The notes beneath the pieces are model-generated. The model was given only the letters and a program-made list of their open reading frames with translations, did not search any database and was not told the DNA's origin. From a virus (lineage: Duplodnaviria > Caudoviricetes), in IMG/VR virus record IMGVR_UViG_3300031555_004728, positions 192,001 to 256,000 of that record: a DNA stretch of 64,000 nt; one strand, 5' to 3'. The stretch's first letter is position 1; every line of letters starts with the position of its first letter. The translations under genes were made by a program, and so were the position numbers. This document shows positions 1,347 through 28,437 of the stretch, in pieces.

Positions 1347-1428
1347 GAACCAATTTTGTTAAGTTAACTTTCTCTAGTTATCGATAATTTACGAAGAATA
1401 CAGAAATCTTACTTAACAAAACTGCAAC
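1347..1428 (+). repeat. 82-bp palindromic cassette-leader repeat, copy 1
   Basis: GAACCAATTTTGTTAAGT...ACTTAACAAAACTGCAAC; five further copies in the window. Confidence 0.95.
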
Positions 1429-1824
1429 CAAATAACATGCCAGATATATCATTATTCTGTTGATGGTAATAATCCTTTAGGTATACCTTGGGGTTGTTTT
1501 ATATATAAATATTCCAATGGATTAATGATGATATCTGCTTGGCAAACAGTTAGTGATATTCCTGTATCATCATCATGGGGATCTTTATATTCATCTGCCA
1601 GAATTGGTGGGATTGCATACGGATATCAATCTAATACATGGGTACCAGTAACATTTAAAAATGTATTTTTTGAAATTGCATGGTCAAACCACCCGAACCT
1701 ATTAACATTGGGAGGTGGAGGATTTTATCATGAACAAACACAAGATATATATCTTGTATCTGCTGTAAATATTCCAGATGTTGATGCTACTATATATTAT
1801 CATACAGTAGGTATATGGAAATAA
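1417..1824 (+). CDS. tail-fibre tip cassette 1, no 5' start codon (gp53-like C-terminal domain)
   Basis: Frame open from QNCNQ in the repeat; YKYSNGLMMISAW...YHTVGIWK resembles gp53-like fibre C-termini. Confidence 0.65.
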   Translation, partial: QNCNQITCQIYHYSVDGNNPLGIPWGCFIYKYSNGLMMISAWQTVSDIPVSSSWGSLYSSARIGGIAYGYQSNTWVPVTFKNVFFEIAWSNHPNLLTLGGGGFYHEQTQDIYLVSAVNIPDVDATIYYHTVGIWK

Positions 1825-1911
1825 AAATATTGAAAATATCACTAATAAATTAATTAAGATTTATAGACTAAAATAAATATGAGATACAGAAAAATCTGTA
1901 TCTCATATTTC

Positions 1912-2595
1912 TTAAGCTGTATGAATATCTACCATATTTAATAAGATATTTCTCTCTTCTGTTGTAATATCTCCTTGATAACATGACTCATAAACTAAAA
2001 GTTTAATCTCATCAAGTTTATCATCTGTAGATTCTTTGGTCATTCTAGTTCTTCTACTCATTGAAATATCAGCATCATCGATTTTATCAATCATTTTATC
2101 GATTTTAACTTTTGCTGATTTTGGAAGGTTCTTTGTATTAACATTTGATAATGATTTTTTGATTTGGATAAGTTTATCATGAACATCACTATCAGCGTTT
2201 GTTCTAAAATATACAAGAACTGGTGTTAATAAAGTATCTAATGTCATTATTACACCAAATGTTAATGCTCCTGGTATAGATACACCCGTTAATCCAATAA
2301 ATCCAATAAATTCAATAGTAATTCTAATTAAGAATCCTACATCAGTTTTACGCAACTTATCAGGTTCTTTTTCAAGAATATCAGATGCTTTAATAATGTC
2401 ATCATAATTCTTATCTACAAATTCAATAACTTCTTTATCATCTGAGTATTGAGATGGTTTATTATCACGGATATTCTTAATAATTTTCTTAAATTTACCA
2501 AGAGGATTTATAATACTTTCAGTAAAAAACTCTTCTTCTATCTTATTAAAGCTGTATTCCATGACCTCTTCAAATAATACATTATATGCACTCAT
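1912..2595 (-). CDS. putative virion/internal head protein (paralog of 3258..3947)
   Basis: C-terminal KLLVYESCYQGDITTEERNILL motif shared with 3258..3947 and 42639..43025. Confidence 0.55.
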   Translation of the reverse strand: MSAYNVLFEEVMEYSFNKIEEEFFTESIINPLGKFKKIIKNIRDNKPSQYSDDKEVIEFVDKNYDDIIKASDILEKEPDKLRKTDVGFLIRITIEFIGFIGLTGVSIPGALTFGVIMTLDTLLTPVLVYFRTNADSDVHDKLIQIKKSLSNVNTKNLPKSAKVKIDKMIDKIDDADISMSRRTRMTKESTDDKLDEIKLLVYESCYQGDITTEERNILLNMVDIHTA

Positions 2596-2755
2596 GTAAA
2601 ATACCTCATTTCTATTATAATTAAAATATTGTAGTTTATTTTTACATGAATTAAATATTTTAAATAAATATAAATAGTATTTATTTATACTTATTATATT
2701 ATAAAATAAAATATATTAAATACCTATTCTAGATAAATAATTCCTTATTTTCATT

Positions 2756-3097
2756 TTAAAATCCTATTACTAAATAACTGATTTTATATGTACTATCTTC
2801 TGAAAGTGATCCATTAAAATTCCATCCTTTAATATTAACCTTAGTTCTCTCTATAGTACCAACACCCACATTTATAATTGTATCAATATACTCATTTCCT
2901 GCATTTTTTGTAACACTAACAAATGGCTCTTGTGTATAACTAACAGGATATGTCAACTGTCCTTGAAGTATCCACTCTGATATTGGGACAATATCAATAT
3001 ATCCAAAACATATTTTAAGACCATTTTCAAATATTAAATATCCTGATGTTCCATCTTCAAGTTGTTTTCTATATTCTATAAGTCGATTGCAGTTTTG
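2756..3097 (-). CDS. tail-fibre tip cassette 2, no 5' start codon (gp53-like domain)
   Basis: QNCNRLIEYRKQLEDGTSGYLIFENGLKICFG...TYPVSYTQEP...SYLVIGF*; matches the GY..F.NGL..xG / YP..Y...P / Y..IG pattern. Confidence 0.75.
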   Translation of the reverse strand, partial: QNCNRLIEYRKQLEDGTSGYLIFENGLKICFGYIDIVPISEWILQGQLTYPVSYTQEPFVSVTKNAGNEYIDTIINVGVGTIERTKVNIKGWNFNGSLSEDSTYKISYLVIGF

Positions 3098-3167
3098 TTA
3101 AGTAAGTTTTCTGTAATCTAAGGAAAATCTCGATAACTAGAGAAAGTTAACTTAACAAAATTGGTTC
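3086..3167 (-). repeat. 82-bp palindromic cassette-leader repeat, copy 2
   Basis: Reverse-strand copy, same length as copy 1. Confidence 0.95.
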
Positions 3168-3207
3168 CACTTCCTTATTATTTTCTTTTAATTATTTATA
3201 TAAATAA

Positions 3208-3219
3208 AACATAATTATA
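3208..3219 (+). promoter_or_regulatory. AACA-N6-TA late-type phage promoter
   Basis: AACAtaattaTA upstream of 3258; motif recurs before many genes. Confidence 0.55.
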
Positions 3220-3257
3220 ATACATATGTTAAAACTTAATACAAAAATAAATATGAG

Positions 3258-3947
3258 GTGATTACAATGGCAAATTATGAATTACTTCAAGAATCAGTAA
3301 GCGATTATATTTTTGATCAAACTGTTGGATTACTCGTTCAAGAAGGTGAAGATTTAAAAATTTCTAAAATTTTTACTGAAGCTAAAAAAGAATGGAAAAA
3401 ATCTACTAAAGAAATTAGAAAAGCTTGGTCAAATAAAGAGTATGACAAGGCTGCTGAAGAGTGTGATAAACTTATTAAATATCTTAATGATATGGAAGCA
3501 GAAGTTAATGATATTAAAGATGATGCATGGACTATTGTTGGTGGTGTATTATCACAAGGATTACTTACAGTTTTCAAAGCTTTCTTAATTTCAATTCCTA
3601 CATTTGGAATTGGTACTTTTATACCAGTTGTAAAAGATGTTCTTGATGTTGTAATCGGTGTTACAAAACAATGGAAAGAAGAAGGTGAATTTACACCAGA
3701 AATGATCAATACTAGAAGAGATAAGATCAAAGGTCTTTTTTCTGAAATGACACAAATGGTTAAAAACTATAAAAAGAATATCGAAGCAGAAGCTAAAAAA
3801 GTAAAAGAAGAAGAAAAGAAAGAAGAAAAACCTGTTAAAGAATCTGCAACAGTAGAAGAAGTTAAACTTCATATCTTTGAATCTTGTCATGCAGGAGAAA
3901 TTTCTCAAGAAGAAAGAAACGCATTACTTGCAATTCTTGAAAAATAA
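3258..3947 (+). CDS. putative virion/internal head protein
   Basis: C-terminal KLHIFESCHAGEISQEERNALL motif; late-type promoter upstream. Confidence 0.55.
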   Translation: MITMANYELLQESVSDYIFDQTVGLLVQEGEDLKISKIFTEAKKEWKKSTKEIRKAWSNKEYDKAAEECDKLIKYLNDMEAEVNDIKDDAWTIVGGVLSQGLLTVFKAFLISIPTFGIGTFIPVVKDVLDVVIGVTKQWKEEGEFTPEMINTRRDKIKGLFSEMTQMVKNYKKNIEAEAKKVKEEEKKEEKPVKESATVEEVKLHIFESCHAGEISQEERNALLAILEK

Positions 3948-4012
3948 CATTTTTATATTTTTGTACAAAAATATAAATTCCCTAGACTATATCAAATAGT
4001 CTAGGGATTATT

Positions 4013-5287
4013 TTATTTTGTTTTATGAAGTCTTCTAAGTTCAATATATGCTAATATAGAGAAATCTCCATTACCTGTTGTATTTACAAATTTAAATACA
4101 GTTTTACTTAAAAAATAAGTTCCTTTATATTTATTAGTAAGTTTTTGGTCTTCAAAAACTAATGAAAATTTCTTATTTGGTGTTAAAGCGGATACATCAA
4201 CGTCACTAATCATACCTGATATAATTAATGAGTTTGATGATGTTTGAGCTGTAAATGTGGTATTAAGCCATTCATTTTCACCTTCATTTTCAATAATTGC
4301 TACATTAGCATCTCCATTAGTAATTGTATTACTAGTAGATTTACTTGTATTTCCAGTAGATGTGTTTATAACTAAAGCATCACTACCAGTTAAAACATCT
4401 CTAGTAACTGATTTATTACTAATTTTTATTTCATCATAATTCCAATTTATATAATGTCTATTATCATTACTTTCAATACTTCCTATACCTGAATTTTCTA
4501 CACTTGTTAATTTTGGTATATAAATACAAGTTTCAGTTTTCTCACCATTTTCAAATGCTGTACATCCACCTTTAAAATTCAAAATATAAGTTCTATCAAT
4601 ACCAAAAAATATAACAGAACCGTATTTATAAAAACCATACATTGCATCTAAATGTAATAGTTGTTTATTTATGGTTAGTGGTGGTAATAAAATTTCTTCA
4701 TAAGTTCTATTATTTTCTAATGGACTTACTAAAGCATTTTTAATCTTACTAATACCAAATAAATATCCTATTACACTAGATAATGTAACATTTTTAAGAA
4801 TATTATTTATTTGGGTTTTTACTCCTGTAGATGTTTCTTCCCTGTACAAGAATAACTCTAATGGATAATCATACATTTCAAGTTCATCATCTGAATTAGA
4901 TTTATTTATTTTTTCTTGTAAGTCTAAATCATCATCTCTTGATATGTCCATTGTATCATCTATTATTACAAAAGTATCATTTATAAAATCTTTATACATA
5001 GATTTTTTATTACTTCCATATAATTGATAGTATTTTTGTAATCTAAGTTTAATTTTCACTTCAGTTTTATTATTAAGTATTTTATAGTATGTACTGCTAT
5101 CTAAAACTAAATTTAATTTAAAAATAGGGAATGTGTTATTAAAATAATCATTCACTAATTCAATACCAGTAACACACATTTTATCTAATTGAATTGCTTC
5201 ATCATTGACTAAAATTATACATGAATATATAGAATATCTCCATGATTGTAATTTGGAAGAATCAAATAACGCCATGATTAAAGTCAC
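4013..5287 (-). CDS. putative baseplate hub/tail-associated structural protein
   Basis: 424 aa; C-terminal LTPNKKF...YKGTYFLSKTVFKF resembles hub/late-control-D C-termini (weak). Confidence 0.4.
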   Translation of the reverse strand: MTLIMALFDSSKLQSWRYSIYSCIILVNDEAIQLDKMCVTGIELVNDYFNNTFPIFKLNLVLDSSTYYKILNNKTEVKIKLRLQKYYQLYGSNKKSMYKDFINDTFVIIDDTMDISRDDDLDLQEKINKSNSDDELEMYDYPLELFLYREETSTGVKTQINNILKNVTLSSVIGYLFGISKIKNALVSPLENNRTYEEILLPPLTINKQLLHLDAMYGFYKYGSVIFFGIDRTYILNFKGGCTAFENGEKTETCIYIPKLTSVENSGIGSIESNDNRHYINWNYDEIKISNKSVTRDVLTGSDALVINTSTGNTSKSTSNTITNGDANVAIIENEGENEWLNTTFTAQTSSNSLIISGMISDVDVSALTPNKKFSLVFEDQKLTNKYKGTYFLSKTVFKFVNTTGNGDFSILAYIELRRLHKTK

Positions 5288-5336
5288 CTTCCTTTCAAAA
5301 AAATATCACTTAAGGTAATGTGCCTTAAGTGATATC

Positions 5337-6425
5337 TTAAATTGTAAGTTCTTCAAGCATAAATCTATGCTCATAAAATCTTGTTGAATTGAGTTGTAAT
5401 AAACCATTATGATCAAACCTATCTACTAACTGTGATTCAACAGAGTGAATTTGTTCTTTTGTAAGTTTACTATACATAGTTTCCATATCCAAACAATTAA
5501 AATTACATATTACATCTTCTTGTAGTTCTTCAGGAAAAATACTTGAAATAGTTTGGATATTAGTTGTATTTATAGTTATCTTATTTTCTCTTAATCCTTG
5601 ATTAAGAAGTTTTAATAAAGTTATATTTCCTATACCTGGTATTTTTTCAACTGCTCTATATTGCTCTCCAAGTACAGAAAATAATAACATATAAAATGAT
5701 TTATTACAATATAAATTTAGTTCTTCATTATAATCTCCATTTGGTTTATTCAATAATGATGATAAATGTCCTTTTAAATCTCCACTTGTTGTTGATTTTA
5801 TAGGACTACGTCTAAGATAGTGACAAATATAATTTGGTATTAACGAATACTGAGTATCTACGTATTCTCCAGTCACTAATAAATTTTTTCTACTTTTATC
5901 CAAATTACCAATTATAAGAGGAACTAAAGAACTATCAAAACCTTTAGTAGTTATAAAATAAACACCCTTAATATAATTACAAATTGCTTGTGTTTGAGGT
6001 ATTATGGTATTTTTAAATTTTTCTGACATCTCCATATATTTTGGATTCTTTGAATATTTAACTGTATAATATGACCTAAAATCAGGATTAATTTCCGTTT
6101 CGTTAAATTTATCTTCTGAATAATCTGTCATATATAGATACACTCTTGTATCTAGGTTGTTTCCTCTAAAAAACTTTCGATAATGTGCAGCTAGATTTAT
6201 AATATTAGATATAATATTTTCATTAAAATCTGTGCACGAATAAACTTTTCTGTCTACATCTTTTATATTAGATAATAATCTAAGTATAGATTCTAGATTA
6301 ATAAATACATTTACTTTATCAGTCGGTTGTAAAAAATTTAACTCGTCCAAACTTTGATCGTATGTTGCATATTTAATCTTCATCACATTAAAACAAACAG
6401 AAAAGGAATCAAATTCATTCATCAT
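5337..6425 (-). CDS. 5'-3' exonuclease / T4 RNase H-like (FEN family)
   Basis: Helix-hairpin motif EKIPGIGNITLLKLL; size fits; acidic motifs look degenerate. Confidence 0.6.
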   Translation of the reverse strand: MMNEFDSFSVCFNVMKIKYATYDQSLDELNFLQPTDKVNVFINLESILRLLSNIKDVDRKVYSCTDFNENIISNIINLAAHYRKFFRGNNLDTRVYLYMTDYSEDKFNETEINPDFRSYYTVKYSKNPKYMEMSEKFKNTIIPQTQAICNYIKGVYFITTKGFDSSLVPLIIGNLDKSRKNLLVTGEYVDTQYSLIPNYICHYLRRSPIKSTTSGDLKGHLSSLLNKPNGDYNEELNLYCNKSFYMLLFSVLGEQYRAVEKIPGIGNITLLKLLNQGLRENKITINTTNIQTISSIFPEELQEDVICNFNCLDMETMYSKLTKEQIHSVESQLVDRFDHNGLLQLNSTRFYEHRFMLEELTI

Positions 6426-6529
6426 AATGATTACCGTTCCTTTTATAATATTATCAAAAAGTTTTAACGTTAGAAAAATAGTATGACAAGATCAATTTCA
6501 TGACCTTGTCATACCAATTATTTCATAAC

Positions 6530-7237
6530 TTATTTATTCACATGAGTTTGTTTTACAATTCTAAGAATGTCTGAAACATTGTCTTTCTTTTGTTTCTTCG
6601 GTTCTTTTGTAACGAAGTACTTGTAATTTTCATGTGAAATTCTTTCGACCTTTTCAATAACTGTAAAGTATCTTGGAACACCCTGTTTTGTAACATCGTC
6701 ATTACCAGTTTTAATCATATCACTGATGACTTTAATAGGGTCAATTAAGAAAACAACTGACTTACGAGAAGAGTCATTTGATTTCATAATCTTTGGTGAG
6801 CATAGACCTGCTATCTCACTAGCCATTCTTGATGTAAGTGACAGGTTCTTTTTAAGAAGTCCTGAATTTAAGAATGCTTTCTTATCATCTTTTGTATAGA
6901 TGAATGATAATAATGCATCCCAGATTGGCTTTTCAATTTTTGACACGTTATCATTACTTTCGTCTTTGAAAATGTCATAGATTCCTTGACCATTAGCACC
7001 TCTGCTCTTAATTGCTTCCTCTGGAAGAACGATCATCATAGGAACAAATTTCTTAGTCCAGTCAATTGACACAAGGCTAATTTGTACATCTGGTATATCA
7101 ATACCATTTTTACGTGCTGTACTTGTAAAAGTATTCAGTCTTTTTTGTAGAAAGTCTGCTACTTGAGATGTAGCAATTTCAAATTTTTCGACAGTTTCGA
7201 CAGGTTGAAGTCCTGCCCTGTTACCGTTATTGGACAT
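6530..7237 (-). CDS. hypothetical protein
   Basis: ORF with AGGAGG RBS and TATATTAT motif upstream. Confidence 0.75.
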   Translation of the reverse strand: MSNNGNRAGLQPVETVEKFEIATSQVADFLQKRLNTFTSTARKNGIDIPDVQISLVSIDWTKKFVPMMIVLPEEAIKSRGANGQGIYDIFKDESNDNVSKIEKPIWDALLSFIYTKDDKKAFLNSGLLKKNLSLTSRMASEIAGLCSPKIMKSNDSSRKSVVFLIDPIKVISDMIKTGNDDVTKQGVPRYFTVIEKVERISHENYKYFVTKEPKKQKKDNVSDILRIVKQTHVNK

Positions 7238-7369
7238 ATCTAAGTCCTCCTTTTATAAAATATTTTTTTATTGATAAATAGATTAAATCTATTATATCTA
7301 AATTAATAATATACTCTCAAAAGTATAAAATCAATTTTCTTAATTTGATGTTTCGTATCGTATTTATTT

Positions 7370-8602: not shown

Positions 8603-8843
8603 TTTTGACCTCCTTTACCATTTGTAGGTGGGAATAATTGTGATATAATAACAACTAACATCACAATCAAAAACCATGTTGAAGCTGTATTATTCATCAC
8701 ATTTATCTCCTTCATTTTCATCAGTATTTTTAGAATTGATTAATTCTAATTCGTATCTAATATCACCTAATTTATCATTTATTATATATAATATGAATAC
8801 TATTATTCCTAAACAAATATAAATTATTTCTTCATGTTCCATA

Positions 8844-10052
8844 TTAATCATTCATCTCCATTTCTATAAGTTTCATGACATCTGTATGTAAATACATATC
8901 TATTTGCTCCCCTCCTAATTCCTTTCCATTTAAATCTTTGATATATGTATTTAAAACTTCCCCAACAGATAGATTCTTATTGAGTATATAGTCATACTTA
9001 AATAATATATCTTTTAAAGCCGATTCGTCAGTTTGCTTTTTCTTTGATATATATCCATTTACAAAGTCACAATGAACTCCATTTAAATTTCTGAAATTCT
9101 CTCTCATAGTACTTATAAAAAATTCTGGATTTGGGTAATCTTCTGGTATATTGAAAATAAGTCTTGTACTTTTATTATCACTATTTTCAATTAAGTTTCT
9201 TAATGTCTTTAAATGATTTTCAAGCATTTCTTCTGATGAAAAAATTTCATGGTCGTATCCAAATATATGAGTTTTAAATTTTGGAGCATCATAATTCTCG
9301 TGAAATTCCGATGAATAATGAGGTTCATCTTCTAAATCACAAATTATTTCATAATATCCCTTTGGTTCTTCTTCACCATGTATCCAACGAGTAAAACTTC
9401 CAACATAATGGACATAATCTTGAATTACTGTATGTACATGGTAATGACCGAAATAAACTTCACCTTTACAGCATTTCTTAAAATCTGCTGTAGTAAATAC
9501 AGCTGGTTTAAGTCTACTATCTTTATCTTTTTTATTTTCTCTTTTAATCATAGTCATTGCTTCAGCAATTACACCATGACCAAATATATAATCATATTTT
9601 TTCTTTTGACTGAAGAACTCTTTATAGTATTCATCTTTATCTTTAATATACTCTTCAGGAAGATACAAAACTTGCATTCCTGGAAGTAGTTCTTCTTCGC
9701 AAACGGTTTTAATAATTTTAAAATCTAAACCTTTCATATTTTCATAAATAGAAAATATATGGTACTGATCTACTTCATGTGATTCTGTACCATAAACAAT
9801 TCGTATACATTTTGTATATTGGGTTAATTTATTCATAAGCCATAATCCTGCATCACTAGCACGATTGTTTAAGAATATTTTCTTATCCCAATAATCACCA
9901 TCTATAATTATAAAGTCAAAATAATATCTAGTGTCCAAAAGATTAAATAGATTAGTTCTAAGCTCTTGTTTCATTTCATCAACATCTGTTGCTCCGAAAT
10001 GTATGTCCGCTAGAACTAATCCTCTATATTTTTTACTCATAACACTATCCAT
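8844..10052 (-). CDS. SbcD/Mre11-like metallophosphoesterase nuclease
   Basis: ADIHFG, GDYWD, GTESHE, FGHG and FGHYH motifs. Confidence 0.8.
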   Translation of the reverse strand: MDSVMSKKYRGLVLADIHFGATDVDEMKQELRTNLFNLLDTRYYFDFIIIDGDYWDKKIFLNNRASDAGLWLMNKLTQYTKCIRIVYGTESHEVDQYHIFSIYENMKGLDFKIIKTVCEEELLPGMQVLYLPEEYIKDKDEYYKEFFSQKKKYDYIFGHGVIAEAMTMIKRENKKDKDSRLKPAVFTTADFKKCCKGEVYFGHYHVHTVIQDYVHYVGSFTRWIHGEEEPKGYYEIICDLEDEPHYSSEFHENYDAPKFKTHIFGYDHEIFSSEEMLENHLKTLRNLIENSDNKSTRLIFNIPEDYPNPEFFISTMRENFRNLNGVHCDFVNGYISKKKQTDESALKDILFKYDYILNKNLSVGEVLNTYIKDLNGKELGGEQIDMYLHTDVMKLIEMEMND

Positions 10053-10142: not shown

Positions 10143-11168
10143 ATGTTTGATGTACATGAAAGAGACAGACAAGAAATTGACACGATTTTGGATAACCTGA
10201 AAAAGCAGGGCAAAATTGATTTAGAACTTAAAGGTGATAATGAAAGACAACTTTTCCAAGACCAATTTCACCAGCAAGCAATTCAGATGGGATTATTACA
10301 ACAACCCAGTTCTGAATTTGCAAGTTCGTATAATGTACTTAGAGAATTTTTACTTAGTAAGAAATTTGAAAATCTTTCTAGTAATACTTTAAAAATTTAC
10401 TATAATACGATTTTCAATTTTATTGAACAAATGGATGAAGGTAAGACTCTATTTGATGTCAAGACTGCTGATATCAGAGCTTATTTAATGCACTATCAAG
10501 ATGAACATAAGTGTTCTAGTCTAACTATAGATAATATGAGAAGGTGTTTCTCATCATTTTATAATTGGCTAGAAGATGAGGATTATGCTATTAAAAACCC
10601 GGTTAAAAAGATAAAGAAAATAAAAAGTGATAAAGTTATAAAGAAACCATTTAGTCATGAAGAATTGGAAATGATTAAAGATGCTTGTAGAAACTATAGG
10701 GAATTATCACTTATAGAGTTTCTGTATTCTACAGGTATTCGTGTTAGTGAACTTTGTGGACTAGATATTTCAGATTTAGATTTTAACCAAAGAGAAGGTA
10801 TTGTATTTGGTAAAGGTAGCAAAGAACGTGTTATATATTTTGATGTTAGAAGCAAAGTCCATTTATTACGATATTTAAATACAAGAGTCGATAATAATCC
10901 GGCATTATTTGTTACTAAGAAATATCCATTTAATAGATTAGAAAAAAGCGGTGTCGAATCTATTATAAGAGAAATAGGTAAACGTGCTGGAGTGGAAAAA
11001 TGTCATCCACATAGATTTAGAAGAACATTTGCTACTAACCTTCTCGATAGAGGGGTTCCTATCGAGCAAGTACAGATTTTATTAGGTCATAATAAAATAG
11101 ATACTACGTTATTATATGCTACAGTAAATACACAATCAGTTAAATTAAATCATGACAGATTCGTTTAA
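10143..11168 (+). CDS. tyrosine recombinase (XerD-like, N-terminal SAM-like domain), candidate cassette recombinase
   Basis: Catalytic residues: TGIRVSE (R), GKGSKER (K), HPHRFRRT (HxxR), LLGH (H), TTLLY (Y). Confidence 0.92.
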   Translation: MFDVHERDRQEIDTILDNLKKQGKIDLELKGDNERQLFQDQFHQQAIQMGLLQQPSSEFASSYNVLREFLLSKKFENLSSNTLKIYYNTIFNFIEQMDEGKTLFDVKTADIRAYLMHYQDEHKCSSLTIDNMRRCFSSFYNWLEDEDYAIKNPVKKIKKIKSDKVIKKPFSHEELEMIKDACRNYRELSLIEFLYSTGIRVSELCGLDISDLDFNQREGIVFGKGSKERVIYFDVRSKVHLLRYLNTRVDNNPALFVTKKYPFNRLEKSGVESIIREIGKRAGVEKCHPHRFRRTFATNLLDRGVPIEQVQILLGHNKIDTTLLYATVNTQSVKLNHDRFV

Positions 11169-11224: not shown

Positions 11225-12130
11225 TTAGAATGTGATATCAATTGCTTTAACAGCTTCGATTGTTTCAGCATTTCTAATTTCAACTTCAATTTCCTGTTGT
11301 TTAGATACTAATGGTCTAACAACTGCTTCAATGTCTGCAGCAAGAGCCTGAAGTTCATCTAATGTCCAGTCATATGTACATACTTCTCCAGTAGCATTCC
11401 ATGATGGAGTATATTCTGGATTTAATGATGCCATCATAATAACTGCCATAAGTTGTGATTGTTTTTCTTGTGTCATACTGTATTCAGCTTCAACACCAGC
11501 ATGTGCTGTAGATTTAACAGTATTTGTTGCAAGATAATTTGCAAGATTAACTTTGCTTGTTGCAATTCTGTAATCTTTAAGACCTTCAAGATCAAGTTCA
11601 TCTTCATCAAGAAGATTAAGTTGTGTCTTGATAATGTCAATATCACTTGCATTACTTGTAACAGTTTCATTATATTTAGCCATTTGAGCTAATGATTCTT
11701 TAAGTTCAGTATTAGCTGTGCTCAAAGTTTCAACTTTACCAGCAAGTGTCTTATTTTCTCCTTGAAGTGTATTAACAAGATCTTCAAGAGTTGCAATCTG
11801 CTCTGGGATTGTTGTAGAGAGGCTCATCTTAGCTTCTAATACTTCAACTTCTTCACCATCAATTTCAACAAATGCTGTTGAGATTTGTTCTAATACAGTA
11901 TAATCATTGATTGTACGAACTTCAACTTCATTTTCATATACTGTAAGAACTGCAGTCTTTAATTCATCCTGACAGATAGCTTTTACTGCTGCAATTGTAT
12001 CAATTTCTTTGCCAAATGTAAAGCAAATAACTTTTTTACTAACGCCTTTTCTTTTAAGAATTGATTCAAAAGGAAGGGCTGCAAGAGGATATGCAGTAGA
12101 GTCATTTGTGACTAATTTATACATACTCAT
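11225..12130 (-). CDS. coiled-coil protein with C-terminal DUF4376-like domain (tail-fibre associated/chaperone)
   Basis: C-terminal W..T...WTLDELQALAADI...QQEIEVEIRNAETIEAVKAIDITF pattern; central heptad repeats. Confidence 0.6.
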   Translation of the reverse strand: MSMYKLVTNDSTAYPLAALPFESILKRKGVSKKVICFTFGKEIDTIAAVKAICQDELKTAVLTVYENEVEVRTINDYTVLEQISTAFVEIDGEEVEVLEAKMSLSTTIPEQIATLEDLVNTLQGENKTLAGKVETLSTANTELKESLAQMAKYNETVTSNASDIDIIKTQLNLLDEDELDLEGLKDYRIATSKVNLANYLATNTVKSTAHAGVEAEYSMTQEKQSQLMAVIMMASLNPEYTPSWNATGEVCTYDWTLDELQALAADIEAVVRPLVSKQQEIEVEIRNAETIEAVKAIDITF

Positions 12131-16897: not shown

Positions 16898-17067
16898 GAT
16901 TAAACCTCCTTAATAATAATATTTTTTGTTGACGATTGTATTTATTTACGTCACACTATTAAGTTTTCATAAAGGTATGTAATATCTTTTACCTTTATTC
17001 ACGATAATATTATATCATTGAATTTGATAGAAATTACAAGAAAATATAATGGAATAGAGTGGGAGGG

Positions 17068-17149
17068 GAACCAATTTTGTTAAGTTAAATTTCTCTAGTT
17101 ATCGATAATTTACGAAGATTACAGAAATCTTACTTAACAAAACTGCAAC
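17068..17149 (+). repeat. 82-bp palindromic cassette-leader repeat, copy 3
   Basis: Two substitutions relative to copy 1. Confidence 0.95.
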
Positions 17150-17542
17150 CAACAAGAAATTTCTGAAACTTTAAACTATAGAAATGCTTATATAGAAGTA
17201 TTAAAAAATGATGATCAGACAAATACTACAATAACACCTGGTACAGATACTACTTTAAATATGTTTACAATACCTAGTACTGGCATATATTTTATAGTAG
17301 CATCCATAACTGCTACTAGTAAAGAAGATAATAAATATTTAATATTTCATTTGATTAAAACAACTTCAACAGGAACATATTGGACACCTATAGAACTTTG
17401 TGATAGTGGTTCTTATACAAGACTTTCAGGTTCTTGTATGGTTCCACTTGATAAAGGTACTATTTTAACACTTAAAGCAAGTACAAATAATTCAAGTAAT
17501 TTAAGTGTTAGTTATCGTTTTAGTATAGTAAAATTAGTATAA
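17138..17542 (+). CDS. cassette 3, no 5' start codon (C1q/BclA-like beta-sandwich, putative fibre tip)
   Basis: QNCNQQEISETLNYRNAY...FTIPSTGIYFIVAS...LDKGTILTL...FSIVKLV*; FT.P..G.Y and L.KG motifs. Confidence 0.6.
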   Translation, partial: QNCNQQEISETLNYRNAYIEVLKNDDQTNTTITPGTDTTLNMFTIPSTGIYFIVASITATSKEDNKYLIFHLIKTTSTGTYWTPIELCDSGSYTRLSGSCMVPLDKGTILTLKASTNNSSNLSVSYRFSIVKLV

Positions 17543-20956: not shown

Positions 20957-21038
20957 GAACCAATTTTGTTAAGTTAAATTTCTCTATTTCTCGATAATTT
21001 ACGAAGAATACAGAAAACTTACTTAACAAAACTGCAAC
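20957..21038 (+). repeat. 82-bp palindromic cassette-leader repeat, copy 4
   Basis: Same length and arms as copy 1. Confidence 0.95.
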
Positions 21039-21329
21039 CAGCAAGATCTTGAAACTTATATATCATCATCCACAATGCCATATGTATTTATAACATGTAG
21101 AGAAACTGATTCTACTGAAGTTGTAGATATCTTAAATTGTATACTTGATGAATTACCTAATGATATTTTATTTGGTATTAGGTTAGAAGGTCATAATATT
21201 CCAAGACAGTTTGGATCAGGGTATTTATATGATAATAGTAATTATGGTTCACTAATATTATCTACATGGGATGCACCTGCATTTTTTAGAATTTATAATA
21301 AAGAAATAACAAGAATAGTTTTAACCTAG
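21027..21329 (+). CDS. cassette 4 (putative fibre-tip domain)
   Basis: QNCNQQDLETYISSSTMPY...GSGYLYDNSNYGSLILS...; in frame with the repeat; resembles cassette 5. Confidence 0.55.
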   Translation, partial: QNCNQQDLETYISSSTMPYVFITCRETDSTEVVDILNCILDELPNDILFGIRLEGHNIPRQFGSGYLYDNSNYGSLILSTWDAPAFFRIYNKEITRIVLT

Positions 21330-21356
21330 TTTTGTTTGAACTATAAATGGATAGTG

Positions 21357-21438
21357 GAACCAATTTTGTTAAGTTAACTTTCTCTATCTTTCGATAATTT
21401 CCTTTGATTACAGAAATCTTACTTAACAAAACTGCAAC
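21357..21438 (+). repeat. 82-bp palindromic cassette-leader repeat, copy 5
   Basis: Tandem after cassette 4. Confidence 0.95.
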
Positions 21439-21726
21439 CAGCAAGAAATTATAAATTGTATAGAATCCAATCATATATGGCTTTCCGATAATACTGGTGA
21501 AGATATTACAACATCTGTATATAATTTAGCAACATTTTTCCCAATTAATACATCATTCTGTTGCATACTTCAAACACCATCTGGTATTTGGAATGGTACA
21601 GGTTTTGTATATAAAGGAGCTGAAAATCAATTAAATGGGACATTCATATTATCAAGTGTTGCAGGTATATGTACTGTAAGAATATTAAATGGATATGCAC
21701 TAGGACAAATGTTATATACATTTTAA
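21427..21726 (+). CDS. cassette 5, no 5' start codon (putative fibre-tip domain); missed by the ORF track
   Basis: 99 open codons QNCNQQEIINCIESNHIWL...GTGFVYKGAENQLNGTFILSS...MLYTF*; only ATG is 5 codons before the stop. Confidence 0.65.
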   Translation, partial: QNCNQQEIINCIESNHIWLSDNTGEDITTSVYNLATFFPINTSFCCILQTPSGIWNGTGFVYKGAENQLNGTFILSSVAGICTVRILNGYALGQMLYTF

Positions 21727-21763
21727 AAATAGAGAAGATGGAATTTCCATCTTCTCTATTTAA

Positions 21764-22792
21764 TTATCTAAGATCATTAATAACTACAGCTGGATCATCT
21801 TCTTCAACTACCAAGTAATTATTACCACCACGTGATACTTCAGCAATTTCTCCACCATTAATAGTAAGAGTACATTTCTTGAATGTACCACTAGCATCAG
21901 TACTTGTGTTAGGTTTTTCAGGAGAACCAGCAAATGGAATTTCTCCACCAGCAAATAACTTATTAATAGTTCCTCCATTAATTACCATATCGATAGTATT
22001 CATTGTACCACGATTGATACCTTGAAGAATATTAATATTACCACCATTAACAACCAAAACACCCGTTCCTTCGTGACCATTAGAACCTCCTACTGTAACA
22101 TATGTTTCTGCAACAAAATCACCATCGATAATCATTGATAATGATTTAGCATATGAATATCCGTTTCCACCACCGTAAACAAGATTTTCACAAGTTCCAC
22201 CTGTAAGTTCCATTGTAATGTCTTCTACAATATTCCATGTATTATCAATATCACCATCATATTTAACTGATGAGCATGTACATGTATTAATCCATCTATC
22301 TGCTCCACCACCACGAATATTTCTACATTTACCACCTGTCATTTTAACAACAGCTTTTACAGTGTGTGATTTATGAAGACCACCACCAAATACGTGTTTA
22401 ACATATCCACCTTCAATAGTTACACTTGTATTTGTAAGTGTTTCATCATCATGTCTTCCACCAAATAAATTAAGTGTTGGTCCTGCAAGAATTTCTCCAC
22501 CATCCCATGTAATAAGGCAACCTTCTTCTCCATCAGGTCTTTCCTTTACAACAACTGGTGTACCATTAGCAAAGAAGAATTCTTCACCTTCAAGAATAAT
22601 AAGTTCTGTACTAGGTTCATCAACTTTAGCAGAAACTGAATTAATGAATGTCTCATTAACCATAGTTCTTACAATCTCTTCTACATCGGCTGTTGTAGCG
22701 ATAGGAGCATTGTTTGCTTTTTCTTGTTGCTCTCTGATCTCTTTACATGTTTCACCGATGAAACCAAGTAAGGTTTTATTTTTAGTAGACAT
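21764..22792 (-). CDS. glycine-rich repeat (beta-helix-like) putative structural protein
   Basis: Repeated [VI]xGG..[VL][FY]GGG units; late-type promoter at 22822-22833. Confidence 0.55.
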   Translation of the reverse strand: MSTKNKTLLGFIGETCKEIREQQEKANNAPIATTADVEEIVRTMVNETFINSVSAKVDEPSTELIILEGEEFFFANGTPVVVKERPDGEEGCLITWDGGEILAGPTLNLFGGRHDDETLTNTSVTIEGGYVKHVFGGGLHKSHTVKAVVKMTGGKCRNIRGGGADRWINTCTCSSVKYDGDIDNTWNIVEDITMELTGGTCENLVYGGGNGYSYAKSLSMIIDGDFVAETYVTVGGSNGHEGTGVLVVNGGNINILQGINRGTMNTIDMVINGGTINKLFAGGEIPFAGSPEKPNTSTDASGTFKKCTLTINGGEIAEVSRGGNNYLVVEEDDPAVVINDLR

Positions 22793-22887
22793 AATAGCTA
22801 CCTTCCTTTCTTTTATAATATTAATAAACTGTTTTTAAGTCCATTTTTTAGACATTATTTTAAATTATTATTAGGAGGAAATTTAAG

Positions 22888-23133
22888 ATGTTTTCTGTTG
22901 AGAAATTAAATGAAATTAAATCTGAACTTGCAACTGTTTTAGAATCTGCTGAAAAAGAAGAAAAAGATCCGGTTGCTGAATTAGAGCAAAAAATAGAAGA
23001 TATTAAGAAAAAAGAAACTAGAGGTTTTATTTCAAAAGAAGAAGCTGAAGAAGGAATTTCAGATCTTCAAAAGAAATTAAAAGAAATCAAAAAAGAACTT
23101 TCTGAAAAGAAAGAAGATAAAAAAGAAGATTAA
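22888..23133 (+). CDS. small charged protein
   Basis: AGGAGG RBS; RGFISKEEAE resembles the shared C-terminal motif family. Confidence 0.65.
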   Translation: MFSVEKLNEIKSELATVLESAEKEEKDPVAELEQKIEDIKKKETRGFISKEEAEEGISDLQKKLKEIKKELSEKKEDKKED

Positions 23134-23171
23134 AATAATCCTAGACTGAAAAATCAGTCTAGGATTTCTTT

Positions 23172-23750
23172 TTACAGAAGAATTGCTAATGCTTTAACAT
23201 ACTTATCTTTAAGAGAATCTGTTAAAGTATCATACAATTCAAAATGATGTTTGATGTCTGCAAGTTTAACAAACCATGCTGCTGAATATTGAGGTTTATT
23301 ATCTTTTATCATCTCAATATATGTATTGTATGGTTTTACAACTTTTGATTTTACTGGTTGATTGTCTTCATAATCGATATTTCTTGATACTAATTCAATA
23401 CATGATATGATGTAATCTTCAATAACTGTATTGTGGATTTCAGATAAAATATTTCTTAAATCCTCAAGTGTTACATCAGTATCTTCAATTAAATCATGTG
23501 AAATACCAACTATTTCAATTATGATTTCATCTTGGATTTCTAAAGCCATTCCTAACGTTCTTAACATTTCAGATGAATATTCAGCAACCTTTACAGCATG
23601 TTCATATGTAGCATCATCATACTTAACAAGTGCAAGTTCTTTTATTTTTGCATTTACTGTTAATAATCTTCTTGTTTCATCTGGTAAAATTCTATCCCAG
23701 ATAAAATTCATATTTCTTGCATGATCAACTATCATTATTTTGTCCTCCAA
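23172..23750 (-). CDS. HD-domain hydrolase, Mesh1/SpoT (p)ppGpp-hydrolase-like
   Basis: [22 protein letters not shown]. Confidence 0.7.
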
Positions 23751-23953
23751 GTGATACGTCCTTTTGTTAAATCATATGGTGATATTTCAACAGTAACTTT
23801 ATCACCTGGTAAGATTTTGATAAAATTCGTTCTTAGTTTTCCACTTATGTGTGCTAATACTTCATGGTCATTTTCAAGTTTAACCTTAAACATAGCACCT
23901 GGTAACTTTTCAGTTACAACACCTTCCAATTCAATAAAATCTTCTTTTGACAT
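23735..23953 (-). CDS. infA: translation initiation factor IF-1
   Basis: [41 protein letters not shown]...[13 protein letters not shown] is canonical IF-1. Confidence 0.97.
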
Positions 23954-23969
23954 TACATTTTCTCCTTCT

Positions 23970-24461
23970 TTATTTATATTGAGTATTCATTATATTATGT
24001 GCAATTATTTGCATATCTATTTTTTGATATTCTCCATTAAAGTCTGTTGCTAAACCTACCATACGTTTAGCAATACCTTCAATCAAATACTTTTCAGCAA
24101 TTTCTCTACTGGTATCTACAATTTTATGTGCAACTTGATCTGCAGATTTTTGATACTCATCAGTTTCAAGCAATGCTGCAACTTTATCATTTAGTACCTT
24201 ATATACATTATCCGAAACTATCTTTCTAAAAGATGTCATCTTTTCATATGTATAAGTACTTGTATTAGGTATTGATGCATCATTAAATGTGTTAAATACC
24301 ATTCTTATCATAGAATCTATTTCATTCTCATTTAAGTATCTTTCTAGTACATCATCTGTTAAAATATCTTTTACTTTTTCACGGATGACTTCTTTTGTAG
24401 TCTCTTTAATAATTTCATCCATGTTTGAATTTTCATTAGTTGTTTTCATATTTTCTGACAT
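23970..24461 (-). CDS. hypothetical protein
   Basis: ORF with AAGGAG RBS. Confidence 0.7.
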
Positions 24462-24488
24462 AGTTTAAATCTCCTTTATTTTATATTC

Positions 24489-25316
24489 TTAAAAATAATA
24501 TATCTTTGAAAAAATATCAAAATATGAATAATCAATATGGAAAATTGCATAATATAATTTAACACTTCCATTATCTTCAAATTCATCTGACATAAATTCT
24601 ATATATGGTTTATCTTTTTCTGTATAGAATGGAAATAACTGTATATTACCTTCTATTTCTGGAAAGTCTTTATATTTAATACTGAATTTCTTTTTCATGT
24701 TAATTATATCTGGTTCTTCTTCATCATTAATAAATAATGAAATAAATAATTCAATATTATTCTTAATGAGTTCTAACTCATCATTCATCTTTGAGACTAA
24801 AGAATTTGTTTTTTCTTCATCACAAACTTCAATGACACCTAATTCTTTAGCCCTTGATAAGATAATATCTTTATCTTCAAGATTTTCTTCAACGAGACTT
24901 TTTAACTCCGATATATCTCGGATAAAAATGAGTTCGTTAGTTTCATTTTTAAATAAAATCTCTTTCATACATTCTTCAAATTCATCTTTTATTTTAATAA
25001 TGAATTTCCCTTTTAATGATTCCTGAGAGATAACTCCAGGAATGGAATATATACCATTGTAAATATATAGATCTTTTCTATATACTTTATTAAGTTTTAT
25101 TAGAAGACTTTTTAAATCTTTGGTAAGTCGTGTTTTTTCTTTTTTAAACTCTCTTAAAGCTTTAGCTTCATCCATAAGTCTTCTTTTTAATTCTTTTAAA
25201 CTTTTTAAATCATGCTCTTGATTATAGATTTCATCAAAATTTTCATAACCAAGAGCAGTCATTCTTTTTTCTATATCTTTTATTAAGTCTATTCTTGTAT
25301 CTACCATTCGAATCAC
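24489..25316 (-). CDS. hypothetical protein
   Basis: ORF in operon downstream of the polymerase gene. Confidence 0.7.
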   Translation of the reverse strand: MIRMVDTRIDLIKDIEKRMTALGYENFDEIYNQEHDLKSLKELKRRLMDEAKALREFKKEKTRLTKDLKSLLIKLNKVYRKDLYIYNGIYSIPGVISQESLKGKFIIKIKDEFEECMKEILFKNETNELIFIRDISELKSLVEENLEDKDIILSRAKELGVIEVCDEEKTNSLVSKMNDELELIKNNIELFISLFINDEEEPDIINMKKKFSIKYKDFPEIEGNIQLFPFYTEKDKPYIEFMSDEFEDNGSVKLYYAIFHIDYSYFDIFSKIYYF

Positions 25317-25723
25317 CTATTATAGTTTACATATCTGACTAAGTCAAATGCTATAATTCTTAGTTTATTATCATTTTTATTTTTACTACCCAATGCTCTG
25401 AGTTTTAACTCATAGTCTTTTTCCTTAAGATCTTCAAGAATATACACATATTCTTCTTTTATAGGTTTTACTATAATTTCTTCTTCTGTGAAACTAACTA
25501 ATCTAGCTATTATAGTTTTAGCATCCACTGTCATAAAATCAAGAATATTTTTAAATTTATTATCAATTCTAAGTGGATCATATGTTATAGGAAGACCGCA
25601 ACCAAATATATTATTTGATTTATTCTGTGCTTCGTATATTTGTTCTTTTACTAAATCTATATGAATAGATTTAGTTCCTAATATAAAATCAGCTTTATCT
25701 CTTTTAAATATTATATTCTTCAT
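25313..25723 (-). CDS. hypothetical protein
   Basis: ORF abutting neighbours. Confidence 0.65.
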   Translation of the reverse strand: MKNIIFKRDKADFILGTKSIHIDLVKEQIYEAQNKSNNIFGCGLPITYDPLRIDNKFKNILDFMTVDAKTIIARLVSFTEEEIIVKPIKEEYVYILEDLKEKDYELKLRALGSKNKNDNKLRIIAFDLVRYVNYNR

Positions 25724-25725
25724 GA

Positions 25726-27609
25726 TTATACTCCTAAGTCTTTACATGCTTTCTTATATAATTTATCCAACGATGGTAAATTAAACCATTTTCTACCAGT
25801 ACATAACCAGTTTTTAGTTTGGAAATTATCAAAAGCTTCTTTAGCAACATCATCATGAAAATCTGATGTTTCTTTTGGTAATAATCTGACATTAGTTATA
25901 GTATGAACTTTTCTTGGACCACCAAGTACATTAAATTGACCTGCATCAAGAATACACTTAAAGTGTAATGTACTAGGGTCAATATTCATGGCGAATATTG
26001 TACTTGGATAGAAACTACTCATATCCATATCTATAGCATATTGGAATATATTATTTGACTTTTTACTTCCATATAAAGCCATACCAGTTGGAAGATTTAA
26101 TCTAGGATCACCTACAAGTGCACCCTCGAATCCAACTTTTTTCTTATCATCATCATCATCCTCATCTGGTTCTTCATCACTACCAAATGGTGTTAGGTTT
26201 ATATTTTCACCAGGAACCATTCCACGTGTTAAGAAATCCAAATATTGATAATTCCTAAGTTTTACAGTTTGTTTAAATTCTGAATCGTATGGTGTTATAT
26301 TTTGATATGCCGTAGCATAATAGTTTTCTAAATCTTTAGTTTTATCTTCAATACCTTTTTGAAGTAAAACGTCTTTGATGTTGTATATAAAATATTTCTT
26401 ATAATTCTTATAAGAGAAATATTTAATACTTCCTTCTTCACCATAATCTAATTTAGAATCACCCACTACTTTTTTACCTATATAATTAAGTGAGAATGAA
26501 CGTATTTCTGATTGACCTTTTCTAATAGCCGCATACGTTCTCATCTGACATGTATAATTAGTATATGATGTATTAAAAAAGTAGTCTGTTTTTGATTTAA
26601 TATCAAAATGAAAATTATCTTTTTTAAACCAGCATTCTTTAACTGGAAAATCTGGATGACAGAATAAATCCTTAGGATCTAATCCTAACTTCTGAGCACG
26701 CTTATAAATATAATTAACGTCAAATTCGAAGTTCCAGAAAGTTACAAAATCAAATTTCCTTTTATTAATTAATTCAAAAAGATGAACTAACATCTTTTTT
26801 TCATCTTTATAGAAAAAGAATTTATAATCTAAGACTCCATATACATCATCAAACATCTCATGAAGTTCTTTCTTTATATCTTCTTGATGCTCGATAAAAT
26901 CTATTTCCTGTTCAAGTCTACTTTTATGGAGTTCTCTTCTATATAATTCTTTATCTCTTTCACTTTGTGTCATATATGTTAAATCACGTTCAACATATTC
27001 ACGTCCAACCAAAGCAAATGTGTAACACTTGGATTCATCGTTATCCACAAGTGTTACTAAATCAATAGGACATGTATCTGGATTAGCCAATCCTTCAACA
27101 TCCAAAAAATCCGTCTCTATATCGGCAAATGCCTTTGATATAGGTTTAGGTCTTGAATTGTCATACATCATCATCCATTTATATCTATATAGTGCTCTTA
27201 CATCATAATCAGCACCATATACAAATGGATACATTAAAAAATTCTTAAGTTCTGAGTATCTATGAGTTTTATAGATATCAGAGGCTTGTCTTTTTAAACC
27301 ATCACCACCATCTTCAATTATGGCTGGTATAATATCTTTAAATGGTACACTTTTCTTTTCACACTTATCAAGATATTGATAGTTCAAACTGTATGGAACT
27401 CCATAAGGATCTAAATGTGTTGTCCTGTATTCTGGTTTTTCAAAGTATATGTCCACTGGTGGATTTGGTATTGTTGTAACGTGTTTTTCTTCTGTATCCA
27501 AATCTTTCCAAACGATATATAAAATATCTGGAGTTCCTTCTTTTTTGTTTTCTTTTACGTATTGGATATCTACAAGCATTGCAGAATCCTTTGGTATAAT
27601 TTTACCCAT
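25726..27609 (-). CDS. family B DNA polymerase, N-terminal part (3'-5' exonuclease plus motif A)
   Basis: ExoI ADIETD, ExoII WNFEFD, ExoIII YNIKD, motif A DMDMSSFYPS; motifs B and C absent. Confidence 0.85.
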   Translation of the reverse strand: MGKIIPKDSAMLVDIQYVKENKKEGTPDILYIVWKDLDTEEKHVTTIPNPPVDIYFEKPEYRTTHLDPYGVPYSLNYQYLDKCEKKSVPFKDIIPAIIEDGGDGLKRQASDIYKTHRYSELKNFLMYPFVYGADYDVRALYRYKWMMMYDNSRPKPISKAFADIETDFLDVEGLANPDTCPIDLVTLVDNDESKCYTFALVGREYVERDLTYMTQSERDKELYRRELHKSRLEQEIDFIEHQEDIKKELHEMFDDVYGVLDYKFFFYKDEKKMLVHLFELINKRKFDFVTFWNFEFDVNYIYKRAQKLGLDPKDLFCHPDFPVKECWFKKDNFHFDIKSKTDYFFNTSYTNYTCQMRTYAAIRKGQSEIRSFSLNYIGKKVVGDSKLDYGEEGSIKYFSYKNYKKYFIYNIKDVLLQKGIEDKTKDLENYYATAYQNITPYDSEFKQTVKLRNYQYLDFLTRGMVPGENINLTPFGSDEEPDEDDDDDKKKVGFEGALVGDPRLNLPTGMALYGSKKSNNIFQYAIDMDMSSFYPSTIFAMNIDPSTLHFKCILDAGQFNVLGGPRKVHTITNVRLLPKETSDFHDDVAKEAFDNFQTKNWLCTGRKWFNLPSLDKLYKKACKDLGV

Positions 27610-27710
27610 ATAAATACCTACTTTCTTTTAATATGAGTTTAAATTATTGTGCTTTGGTATATAAAAAAGAACTATGATGAAGAAGACAAAAATCTTCTTC
27701 ATCATATAAA

Positions 27711-28367
27711 TTAAATTGCCCAATATCCATCTACTGATATTAAACCTTCAATTTTATTAGTATTATCATATCCAGAACCACTTACTGTATAACATAATAA
27801 TGCAAATCCAGTGTCCCATAATTCTCTTATATAATAATTTTTTACAAACCACATTCCACCATGCAACGTAAACTGTGGACAGGCATTATAAATATTAAAT
27901 GGATAAAGACATGCTGTTGATGGTGTACCTGCACTATCTGATGTTGCACCATTAATACCTGATGCTACACACCATGCTTTACAATAGCCATTTTGATATT
28001 TTATATAATTCCAGTTATTTATTTTACCGCTTTCTACCATAGGATTTTCACGAGCCCACGGTTCAAATTTACGTACAACTGTAACACCATCAGAGTCATG
28101 CATTGTTAAATATGCTCTTCTATATACTCTTCCATTAATAGTTGTGAATTCTTGAAATTTATATATCCATGGAGATCCAGGTGAATTGAATGAACCGTTT
28201 CCATCATAAACCATAAGTCTACCAGCAGAAACTTGTGGGAGATTTAAACATGTTTCTGCCTCAGTATTTCCTTTTACATAATATATACCACTATCTAAAA
28301 CTGTATTAATATCAACATTTTCTAAGTATCCTTTAATAATAACAAGATTTTGAGAGTTGCAGTTTTG
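27711..28367 (-). CDS. tail-fibre tip cassette 6, no 5' start codon (pyocin-knob-like plus gp53-like domains)
   Basis: QNCNSQ...DINTVLDSGIYY...NLP..SAGRLMV...QEF...VYRR, then ESG...WNYIKYQNGYCKAW...VDGYW. Confidence 0.75.
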   Translation of the reverse strand, partial: QNCNSQNLVIIKGYLENVDINTVLDSGIYYVKGNTEAETCLNLPQVSAGRLMVYDGNGSFNSPGSPWIYKFQEFTTINGRVYRRAYLTMHDSDGVTVVRKFEPWARENPMVESGKINNWNYIKYQNGYCKAWCVASGINGATSDSAGTPSTACLYPFNIYNACPQFTLHGGMWFVKNYYIRELWDTGFALLCYTVSGSGYDNTNKIEGLISVDGYWAI

Positions 28368-28437
28368 TTAAGTAAGATTTCTGTAATCTTCGATAATTCT
28401 CTAAAGATAGAGAAATTTAACTTAACAAAATTGGTTC
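28356..28437 (-). repeat. 82-bp palindromic cassette-leader repeat, copy 6
   Basis: Reverse-strand copy. Confidence 0.95.

Follow-up and report, generated by a model that had tools for sequence, protein, structure and literature searches.

The window analysed here is a stretch of 64,000 nucleotides (G000:C1:192001-256000) from a gut phage genome, the whole record of which has 275,512 bp, direct terminal repeats and a G+C content of 28.5%; positions refer to the window unless marked as those of the genome. It contains six copies of an 82-nt fold-back element, each followed by an open reading frame without a start codon at its 5' end. We propose that such elements are probably the docking sites of a genome-wide library of tail-fibre tips, in which the expressed tip would be switched by an exchange between the spacer of an element and the "head" of the fibre gene, i.e. 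its promoter region, leader and constant front half. The same head is fused at the DNA level to different tips in natural variants and stands at another place of the backbone in a relative.

The 82-nt element

All six copies listed in the initial annotation were recovered on the strands given there (Table 1); each is exactly 82 nt long and they align without gaps, with positions 1-21 and 62-81 identical in 6/6, C or T at position 82, and a variable centre. The search of the whole genome for the repeat, which the initial annotation had proposed as a check, revealed 36 matches to the 21-nt left end (0 for a reversed control pattern), of which 35 belong to full 82-nt elements. The element sites span genome positions 29529-220437, among other genes and on both strands. 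Thus, the scattering among core genes and on both strands had been described correctly, but its extent has to be revised from six copies over 27 kb to 35 over 191 kb. The 12 nt that precede each element (positions -12 to -1) are 50% G, compared with 14% genome-wide. At the element of the cassette at genome 142832, an (AT)n run of ~22 nt (genome 142833-142856) directly precedes the element, while most sites have a longer G-rich run.

Folding of the six window copies as single-stranded DNA predicted an 11-bp outer stem in 6/6 (dG -7.5 to -14.5 kcal/mol, z -2.4 to -5.9). The ends are invariant in 35/35 elements of this genome and in 4/4 elements of a related metagenome contig (L018), despite a backbone identity of 82-96% and differing centres. 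Among the 35 elements there are 22 distinct spacers, identical ones being found at distant sites, and the polymorphisms of the left and right parts are mixed, as would fit the movement or copying of spacers from one site to another. In public phage records, blastn found no match to the element. In IMG/VR, three other element-bearing contigs were found, all of them fragments of the 29-66 kb region of the same phage with identical spacing, which are silent on the head.

Tip cassettes without start codons

The frame that follows the internal TAA of the element (CAA AAC TGC AAY) had been claimed to remain open in all six copies, and it does (lengths in Table 1). A frame of the same phase, 90-276 codons long and beginning with QNCN (often QNCNQQE), is open behind all 35 elements. 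The lack of a 5' start codon is likewise borne out: in the window cassettes the first in-frame ATG, GTG or TTG is reached after 16 to 94 codons, and across the 35 cassettes the first canonical start is at codon 31 (median), with none at all in four. This pattern of repeat plus open frame is far beyond chance. Upstream of the 35 sites, where all three frames were checked, no consistent reading frame or start enters the elements, and the cassettes are often antiparallel to both neighbouring genes. BLAST clustering divided the 35 cassettes into 24 clusters. With regard to a diversity-generating retroelement (a reverse transcriptase with a pair of template and variable repeats), the cassettes are unrelated sequences and not point-mutated copies of each other. 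For three pairs of silent cassettes compared between this genome and L018, the dN/dS values are 0.49, 0.22 and 0.08; the cassettes are therefore maintained as coding sequence.

The folds that the initial annotation had suggested for the cassettes (gp53-like, pyocin-knob-like and C1q/BclA-like) were not confirmed by Pfam, PHROGs or a sequence search of the PDB. Pfam reported only a sub-threshold match of cassette 3 to BclA_C (E-value 0.0082; 16.4 bits against a cut-off of 38) and no match for window cassettes 1, 2, 4, 5 and 6. PHROGs reported a weak similarity of cassette 6 to "tail fiber protein" (E-value 9e-4) and of cassette 3 to an unnamed family, with no match for the other four; the PDB search with cassettes 6 and 3 returned nothing significant. 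ARAGORN found no tRNA in the window and no tRNA or tmRNA gene in the 275-kb genome, and recoding by phage tRNAs was rejected.

The stretch is represented by 20 sequencing-run entries, all of them assembled contigs and none listed as RNA. We inspected four of the 22 listed runs (X6, X7, X8 and X10). The cassette at genome 187566 (element plus tip; L015 4529-5012, genome 187529-188012) is missing in runs X7 and X10, where contigs join across it from 4528 to 4985 and from 4528 to 5013, with 40 (X7) and 67 (X10) other letters at the junction; hence, strains differ in the cassettes that they contain.

The expressed fibre gene and its head

The initial annotation had predicted a constant fibre gene outside the window, and such a gene was found 5.9 kb before the window (genome 186101-187527); its last domain is preceded, in frame, by AAACTGCAACC. 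The 36th match to the left end, a partial one at genome 185925, consists of GAACCAATTTTGTTAAGT, with a G-run before it; downstream come a non-coding region, a Shine-Dalgarno sequence and the ATG at 186101. From this ATG, 375 fibre-like codons lead to the junction ...QIDEL-NCN-LNEF..., the DNA of which is AAACTGCAACC, identical to the right end of the element. Behind N-C-N there is a tip of 97 residues that ends with the stop at 187527, and the next full element begins at 187566. The head is hence a 1.3-kb segment (genome 185925-187233) made up of the promoter region, the leader and 375 codons of the fibre front. It is flanked on one side by 18 nt of the element's left end and on the other by the 11-nt core of the element's right end (= N-C-N); it occupies the place of the 54-nt fold-back spacer that is present at the other 35 sites. 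The constant region and the region upstream of it are single-copy in the genome. Distant homologues of the fibre front carry phage-fibre Pfam accessions, and one of them is named "phage tail protein" by its source. Together with the natural variants described below, these results support the core of the initial annotation, namely that the cassettes serve one fibre gene outside the window as silent, alternative C-termini and are joined to it in DNA at CAAAACTGCAAY / N-C-N.

The leader of the fibre gene contains a terminator-like hairpin followed by TTTTCC (L015 3034-3051, genome 186034-186051), between a conserved AATGTGAAA box and the Shine-Dalgarno sequence; at the matching place of its leader (L031 ~9930-9951), the distant relative also carries a hairpin, though of another sequence, and the leader may be regulated. 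Upstream of the fibre gene there are two direct repeats (L015 2933-2975, genome 185933-185975), in which TTTTGTTAAGTAAAAT occurs twice, the first copy overlapping the element's left end. The matching upstream repeats of the relative (L031 ~9737-9780) are ATGTGAGTAAAAT and GTGTGAGTAAC. This motif is not a general promoter motif of the genome.

Natural variants with other tips and another place of the head

Comparison of related phages, which the initial annotation had also suggested, revealed natural variants that carry other tips exactly at N-C-N. Database searches with the fibre front identified 362 relatives, with three clusters at least 95% identical to it (P0002, P0003 and P0004); the IMG/VR protein search reported only distant relatives. 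P0002 represents the arrangement of this genome. In P0003 the tip at N-C-N is 99% identical to the silent cassette at genome 185505, and in P0004 it is absent from this library. In L018, where the head is 96.8% identical, the tip is 84% identical to the silent cassette at genome 142832. There are thus three close relatives with other tips at N-C-N (fronts 95-97% identical), in two of which the tip is a silent cassette of this genome.

The L018 contig also places the head elsewhere. Its left flank matches genome 145011-143280 and its right flank genome 142760-140789, both collinear and ~43 kb from the place that the head occupies here; the joints fall inside the left end and inside AAACTGCAACC, and the cassette at genome 143302 is absent. 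A head that is relocated in a collinear backbone needs crossovers at both of its ends and rules out a single inversion. The initial annotation, which had placed the recombination at or after the TAA, was right as to the fusion at N-C-N but requires the addition of this second crossover at the left end. Chimeric assembly is unlikely to be the source of the fusions, because the shared stretches are 11-21 nt and in-frame fusions occur in three independent assemblies; the left joint of L018 is the one place for which a chimera could still account.

Some contig ends in the inspected runs deserve mention. In run X6 a single contig leads from the fibre front across the core into tip0 (L015 3643-4593). 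In run X10 a contig of 1312 nt equals the head exactly (2925-4235), and the tip0 contig opens with 18 letters unlike the fibre front. In runs X7 and X10 the contig that stops at the left end (2942) has 9 additional letters, which do not match the head. These ends would fit the presence of several arrangements in one sample, but we do not count them as evidence, because strain differences and low depth are further causes of contig breaks.

A second lineage

A fibre 54% identical and a recombinase 72% identical to those found here are encoded on a contig of 136 kb (G004:C129, hereafter C129) that was binned with the genome of an uncultured Lachnospiraceae. C129 contains 17 elements, each of exactly 82 nt and collinear with the elements of this genome; behind 15 of these, a frame that starts with LNS(N/K) stays open for 107-274 codons, while the remaining two have just 13 and 24 open codons behind them. 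The ends of the C129 elements differ from ours but match the flanks of that phage's own fibre gene, with GATTGAATTTA after the G-run upstream of the promoter region and TAAATAGTAA (= N-S-K/N) at the ...TTL-NSK junction. P0010 is 84% identical to the fibre of the C129 lineage up to LNSK and unrelated beyond.

The fold-back symmetry is kept across the two lineages by changes on both sides (pairs 11/72, 13/70 and 17/66), and the proportion of paired cells is 86.5%, compared with 35-48% when the partner is slid. This covariation represents few independent events, because there are essentially two families. In L031 there is a 137-nt repeat (4606-4742 and 4978-5114; 95% alike, 372 nt apart) with a related inverted copy at ~16995-17172, which is unrelated to the 82-nt element.

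The proposed switch and the candidate enzyme

In the proposed mechanism, each of the 35 sites stands before a tip cassette that has no start codon and would also lack a promoter, and only the tip located behind the head would be made as part of a full fibre. A switch would consist in the head swapping places with the 54-nt spacer of another site, the spacer being left at the old one. One crossover would fall in the 11-18 nt of the left end, together with the G-run, and the other in the 10-11 nt of the right core, which encode N-C-N; the backbone with all other genes would stay in place.

The candidate enzyme is an Xer-like tyrosine recombinase encoded in the window (Table 1), which exceeds the NCBIfam cut-off for XerA-type recombinases (238.8 bits; cut-off 220). 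It scores far below the thresholds of the integron-integrase models (TIGR02249: 91.9 bits, cut-off 265; NF011946: 52.4 bits, cut-off 435). It is the single match to PF00589 in the genome and the only site-specific recombinase found; searches of the genome for serine recombinases of the resolvase type and for the Y1 transposase (PF01797) reported no match. As the only candidate, tied to the sites only by its presence and by its conservation in C129, this protein would perform the exchange, and we infer that the exchange is programmed, frequent and site-specific.

Several observations weigh against this interpretation. None of the six window cassettes, and only 2/35 overall, has been seen fused to a head; the alternative arrangements are between strains (from different assemblies, the data being assembled contigs) and could represent rare events; and two short probes for a spacer-filled site at the position that the head occupies in this genome gave 0 matches in IMG/VR. 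The recombinase gene is 16 kb from the head, and its sites do not resemble a classical two-arm core site. On the right-hand side the homology amounts to just 11 nt and the head has no right arm of the palindrome, which makes the exchange chemistry hard to read. Finally, the identity of the fibre rests on distant homologues: Pfam finds nothing in the protein itself, a PDB sequence search returned nothing significant, and the AlphaFold2 model is poor (pLDDT 46.3, 12-row alignment), so that little weight can be given to its predicted helix at residues 363-375, just before NCN, and the strands that follow.

Alternative explanations

The elements could be conserved linkers in an evolutionary mosaic with no programmed, frequent switch, in which rare recombination between co-infecting relatives generates the different fusions and the cassettes are stored or decaying fragments. 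All alternative arrangements indeed come from different assemblies, heterogeneity of the junction within a sample is unproven in the four runs, and some cassettes decay, as judged from the two short frames in C129. We nevertheless consider mosaicism alone unlikely: in each of three genomes all elements (35/35, 4/4 and 17/17) are 82 nt long and have invariant ends despite divergent centres and flanks, purifying selection acts on the silent cassettes, in two lineages the element ends change together with the flanks of the fibre, and a right-hand homology of 11 nt is very short for general recombination. A classical shufflon or vsa-type system, in which crossovers occur only at the right-end core between inverted sites and each switch inverts the intervening DNA, would explain the 11-nt core before every tip, the constant N-terminal part and the tyrosine recombinase, as in Rin (PMC6109161), as well as the presence of cassettes on both strands. 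It is very unlikely, given that the L018 backbone is collinear on both sides of the head and that the upstream neighbour has changed too, which requires a second crossover at the left end; that the head carries the element's left end in both lineages; and that a single inversion would reverse a large portion of the genome, the sites being separated by as much as 191 kb and interspersed with core genes.

Independent expression of the cassettes is conceivable if the G-rich run served as a Shine-Dalgarno-like sequence ~9 nt before a UUG (positions 10-12 of the element) and the hairpin (positions 13-70) were skipped, which would bring the UUG in frame with CAA AAC UGC. The G content before the elements, the UUG-to-CAA arithmetic readable from the sequence and the outer stem predicted in 6/6 copies agree with this model; we regard it as highly improbable, since DNA-level fusions to the fibre front exist, the G-run and the left end also precede the promoter region of the head, where no ribosome site for a cassette is possible, positions 10-12 are TAG and not a start in C129, and neither an upstream frame nor matching take-off and landing codons were found. 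A translational bypass of the T4 gene 60 type was likewise rejected: there is no consistent upstream frame in the 35 sites, and the sole matching codon pair in the cassette frame, UGU/UGC, has no feeding frame. The least probable of the explanations weighed here, to which we give hardly any credence, is an integron-like one, in which the fold-back elements would be attC-type sites recombined as folded single strands, with element plus tip as the mobile cassette. In an integron, the cassettes form an array next to attI, and each ends (3') with an attC site in which the consensus box RYYYAAC precedes the box GTTRRRY. The imperfect palindrome with conserved ends and a variable centre, the fit of GTTAAGT and ACTTAAC to GTTRRRY and RYYYAAC, and the cassette at genome 187566 that is missing in two runs with a contig joining across it, are all in its favour. 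However, the boxes GTTAAGT ... ACTTAAC face the opposite way to those of attC, stand at dispersed places on the 5' side of the cassettes, and are not conserved in C129; the recombinase scores well below the integron-integrase cut-off; there is no array beside an integrase gene; and the joints of the missing cassette are not at element cores. A hairpin-end transposon of the IS200/IS605 type, or a miniature derivative of one, was discarded for lack of a Y1 (HUH) transposase (PF01797) in the genome.

Comparison with known systems

The Rin shufflon of Bifidobacterium prophages comprises a constant N-terminal segment of a receptor-binding protein and unrelated C-terminal segments, each behind an 11-bp repeat, in a compact locus with five variants and with inversions next to the phage-encoded tyrosine recombinase (PMC6109161). 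The likeness extends to the constant front, the start-less alternative C-termini, the short core at the junction (the 11-nt AAACTGCAACC here) and the variation in host recognition. The two systems differ in that the 35 tips described here occur across 191 kb of the genome and are each preceded by an 82-nt fold-back element, both ends of which are conserved, and in that promoter and constant part are found relocated without inversion of the backbone, with the recombinase 16 kb from the head. Min (p15B), Gin (Mu) and Cin (P1) are systems that join alternative fibre C-termini to one constant part by site-specific rearrangement (PMC6109161). Min, Gin and Cin differ from the present system in their recombinases, as there is no serine recombinase in this genome. 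Those recombinases are serine invertases that act on two to six variants in one invertible block, with crossover sites of ~26 bp.

In the vpma, vsp and vsa systems of Mycoplasma, the recombinases Xer1, Mbr and HvsR put silent genes behind a unique promoter by inversions within one clustered locus (PMC2268961). A single promoter-bearing expression part (single-copy here), silent genes and an Xer-like recombinase are common to both; the differences are that those genes encode bacterial surface lipoproteins and ours a phage fibre, with dispersed sites and a two-ended exchange between variants. The system fails the feature that defines shufflons and the Mycoplasma loci, namely a compact locus that is switched by inversion.

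Integron attC cassettes are promoterless units marked by imperfect palindromes, and recombinase-mediated cassette exchange is an engineering method that swaps DNA between two different sites and leaves the flanks unchanged. Units that would lack a promoter, imperfect palindromes and unchanged flanks are the points of likeness; the differences are the absence of an IntI-type integrase and of an array, and with a recombinase below the IntI-type cut-offs the system is not an integron. In pilE/pilS and vlsE, homologous recombination transfers copies of silent sequences into an expression site that stays fixed. There, as here, a silent library of partial genes feeds one expressed gene, but in the phage the expression part itself sits at the place of the cassette. 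A literature search of open-access full texts and bioRxiv found no published description of such a system and no description of a natural example of recombinase-mediated cassette exchange.

Features of the window

The coordinates of the features are collected in Table 1. A tail-fibre-like gene with a DUF4376 domain is the convergent neighbour of the recombinase gene. The Rfam scan of the window at gathering thresholds gave no match at the elements; its sole match, elsewhere, is a group I catalytic intron (RF00028, 45380-45686, + strand), which covers the full length of the model and scores 87.1 bits (gathering score 50). The segment 49940-50322 is a very A-rich, loosely repetitive stretch of ~380 nt, reported as 28 overlapping copies of an 84-nt unit.

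Table 1. Elements, tip cassettes and recombinase region in the window (window coordinates)
Feature	Position	Strand	Description	Basis
82-nt fold-back element, copy 1	1347..1428	+	putative docking site holding a spacer	outer stem 11 bp, dG -9.2, z -2.8
Tip cassette 1	1417..1824	+	start-less, 135 codons, begins QNCNQITC	first canonical start at codon index 36; no Pfam/PHROG match
Tip cassette 2	2756..3097	-	start-less, 113 codons, begins QNCNRLIEY; in a 5-member cassette family	open frame, BLAST clusters
82-nt element, copy 2	3086..3167	-		sequence, alignment, fold
Xer-like tyrosine recombinase	10143..11168	+	341 aa, candidate enzyme	Pfam Phage_integrase 4.8e-37 and SAM-like N domain
Tail-fibre-like gene (DUF4376)	11225..12130	-	neighbour, convergent with the recombinase	Pfam DUF4376 4e-6; PHROG tail fiber protein 1.6e-7
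82-nt element, copy 3	17068..17149	+		sequence, alignment, fold
Tip cassette 3	17138..17542	+	start-less, 134 codons	open frame; BclA_C below cut-off, E 0.0082
82-nt element, copy 4	20957..21038	+		sequence, alignment, fold
Tip cassette 4	21027..21329	+	start-less, 100 codons	open frame
82-nt element, copy 5	21357..21438	+	in tandem with copy 4	sequence, alignment, fold
Tip cassette 5	21427..21726	+	start-less, 99 codons	open frame
Tip cassette 6	27711..28367	-	start-less, 218 codons	open frame; weak PHROG "tail fiber protein", E 9e-4
82-nt element, copy 6	28356..28437	-		sequence, alignment, fold

Implications

Gin, Cin, Min and Rin have two to six tips in one small invertible block; the genome described here stores 35 tips that fall into 24 clusters, and the part that changes place appears to be the promoter and front half of the fibre gene. 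We speculate, with some doubt, that this could be a natural recombinase-mediated cassette exchange, in which an Xer-like enzyme would let the head hop among at least 36 sites over 191 kb via two sites of 11-18 nt, giving several fibre types per gut population and a 36-way switch of host recognition without change to the remainder of the genome. An active switch would amount to the largest programmed repertoire of host recognition described for a phage; it would also provide a natural case of cassette exchange between two sites that are short and well defined, with a candidate enzyme at hand. For annotation it would carry the warning that many of the small start-less "orphan" open frames in such genomes are halves of one gene. 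More generally, it would bear on how large gut phages keep pace with the variable surfaces of their hosts.

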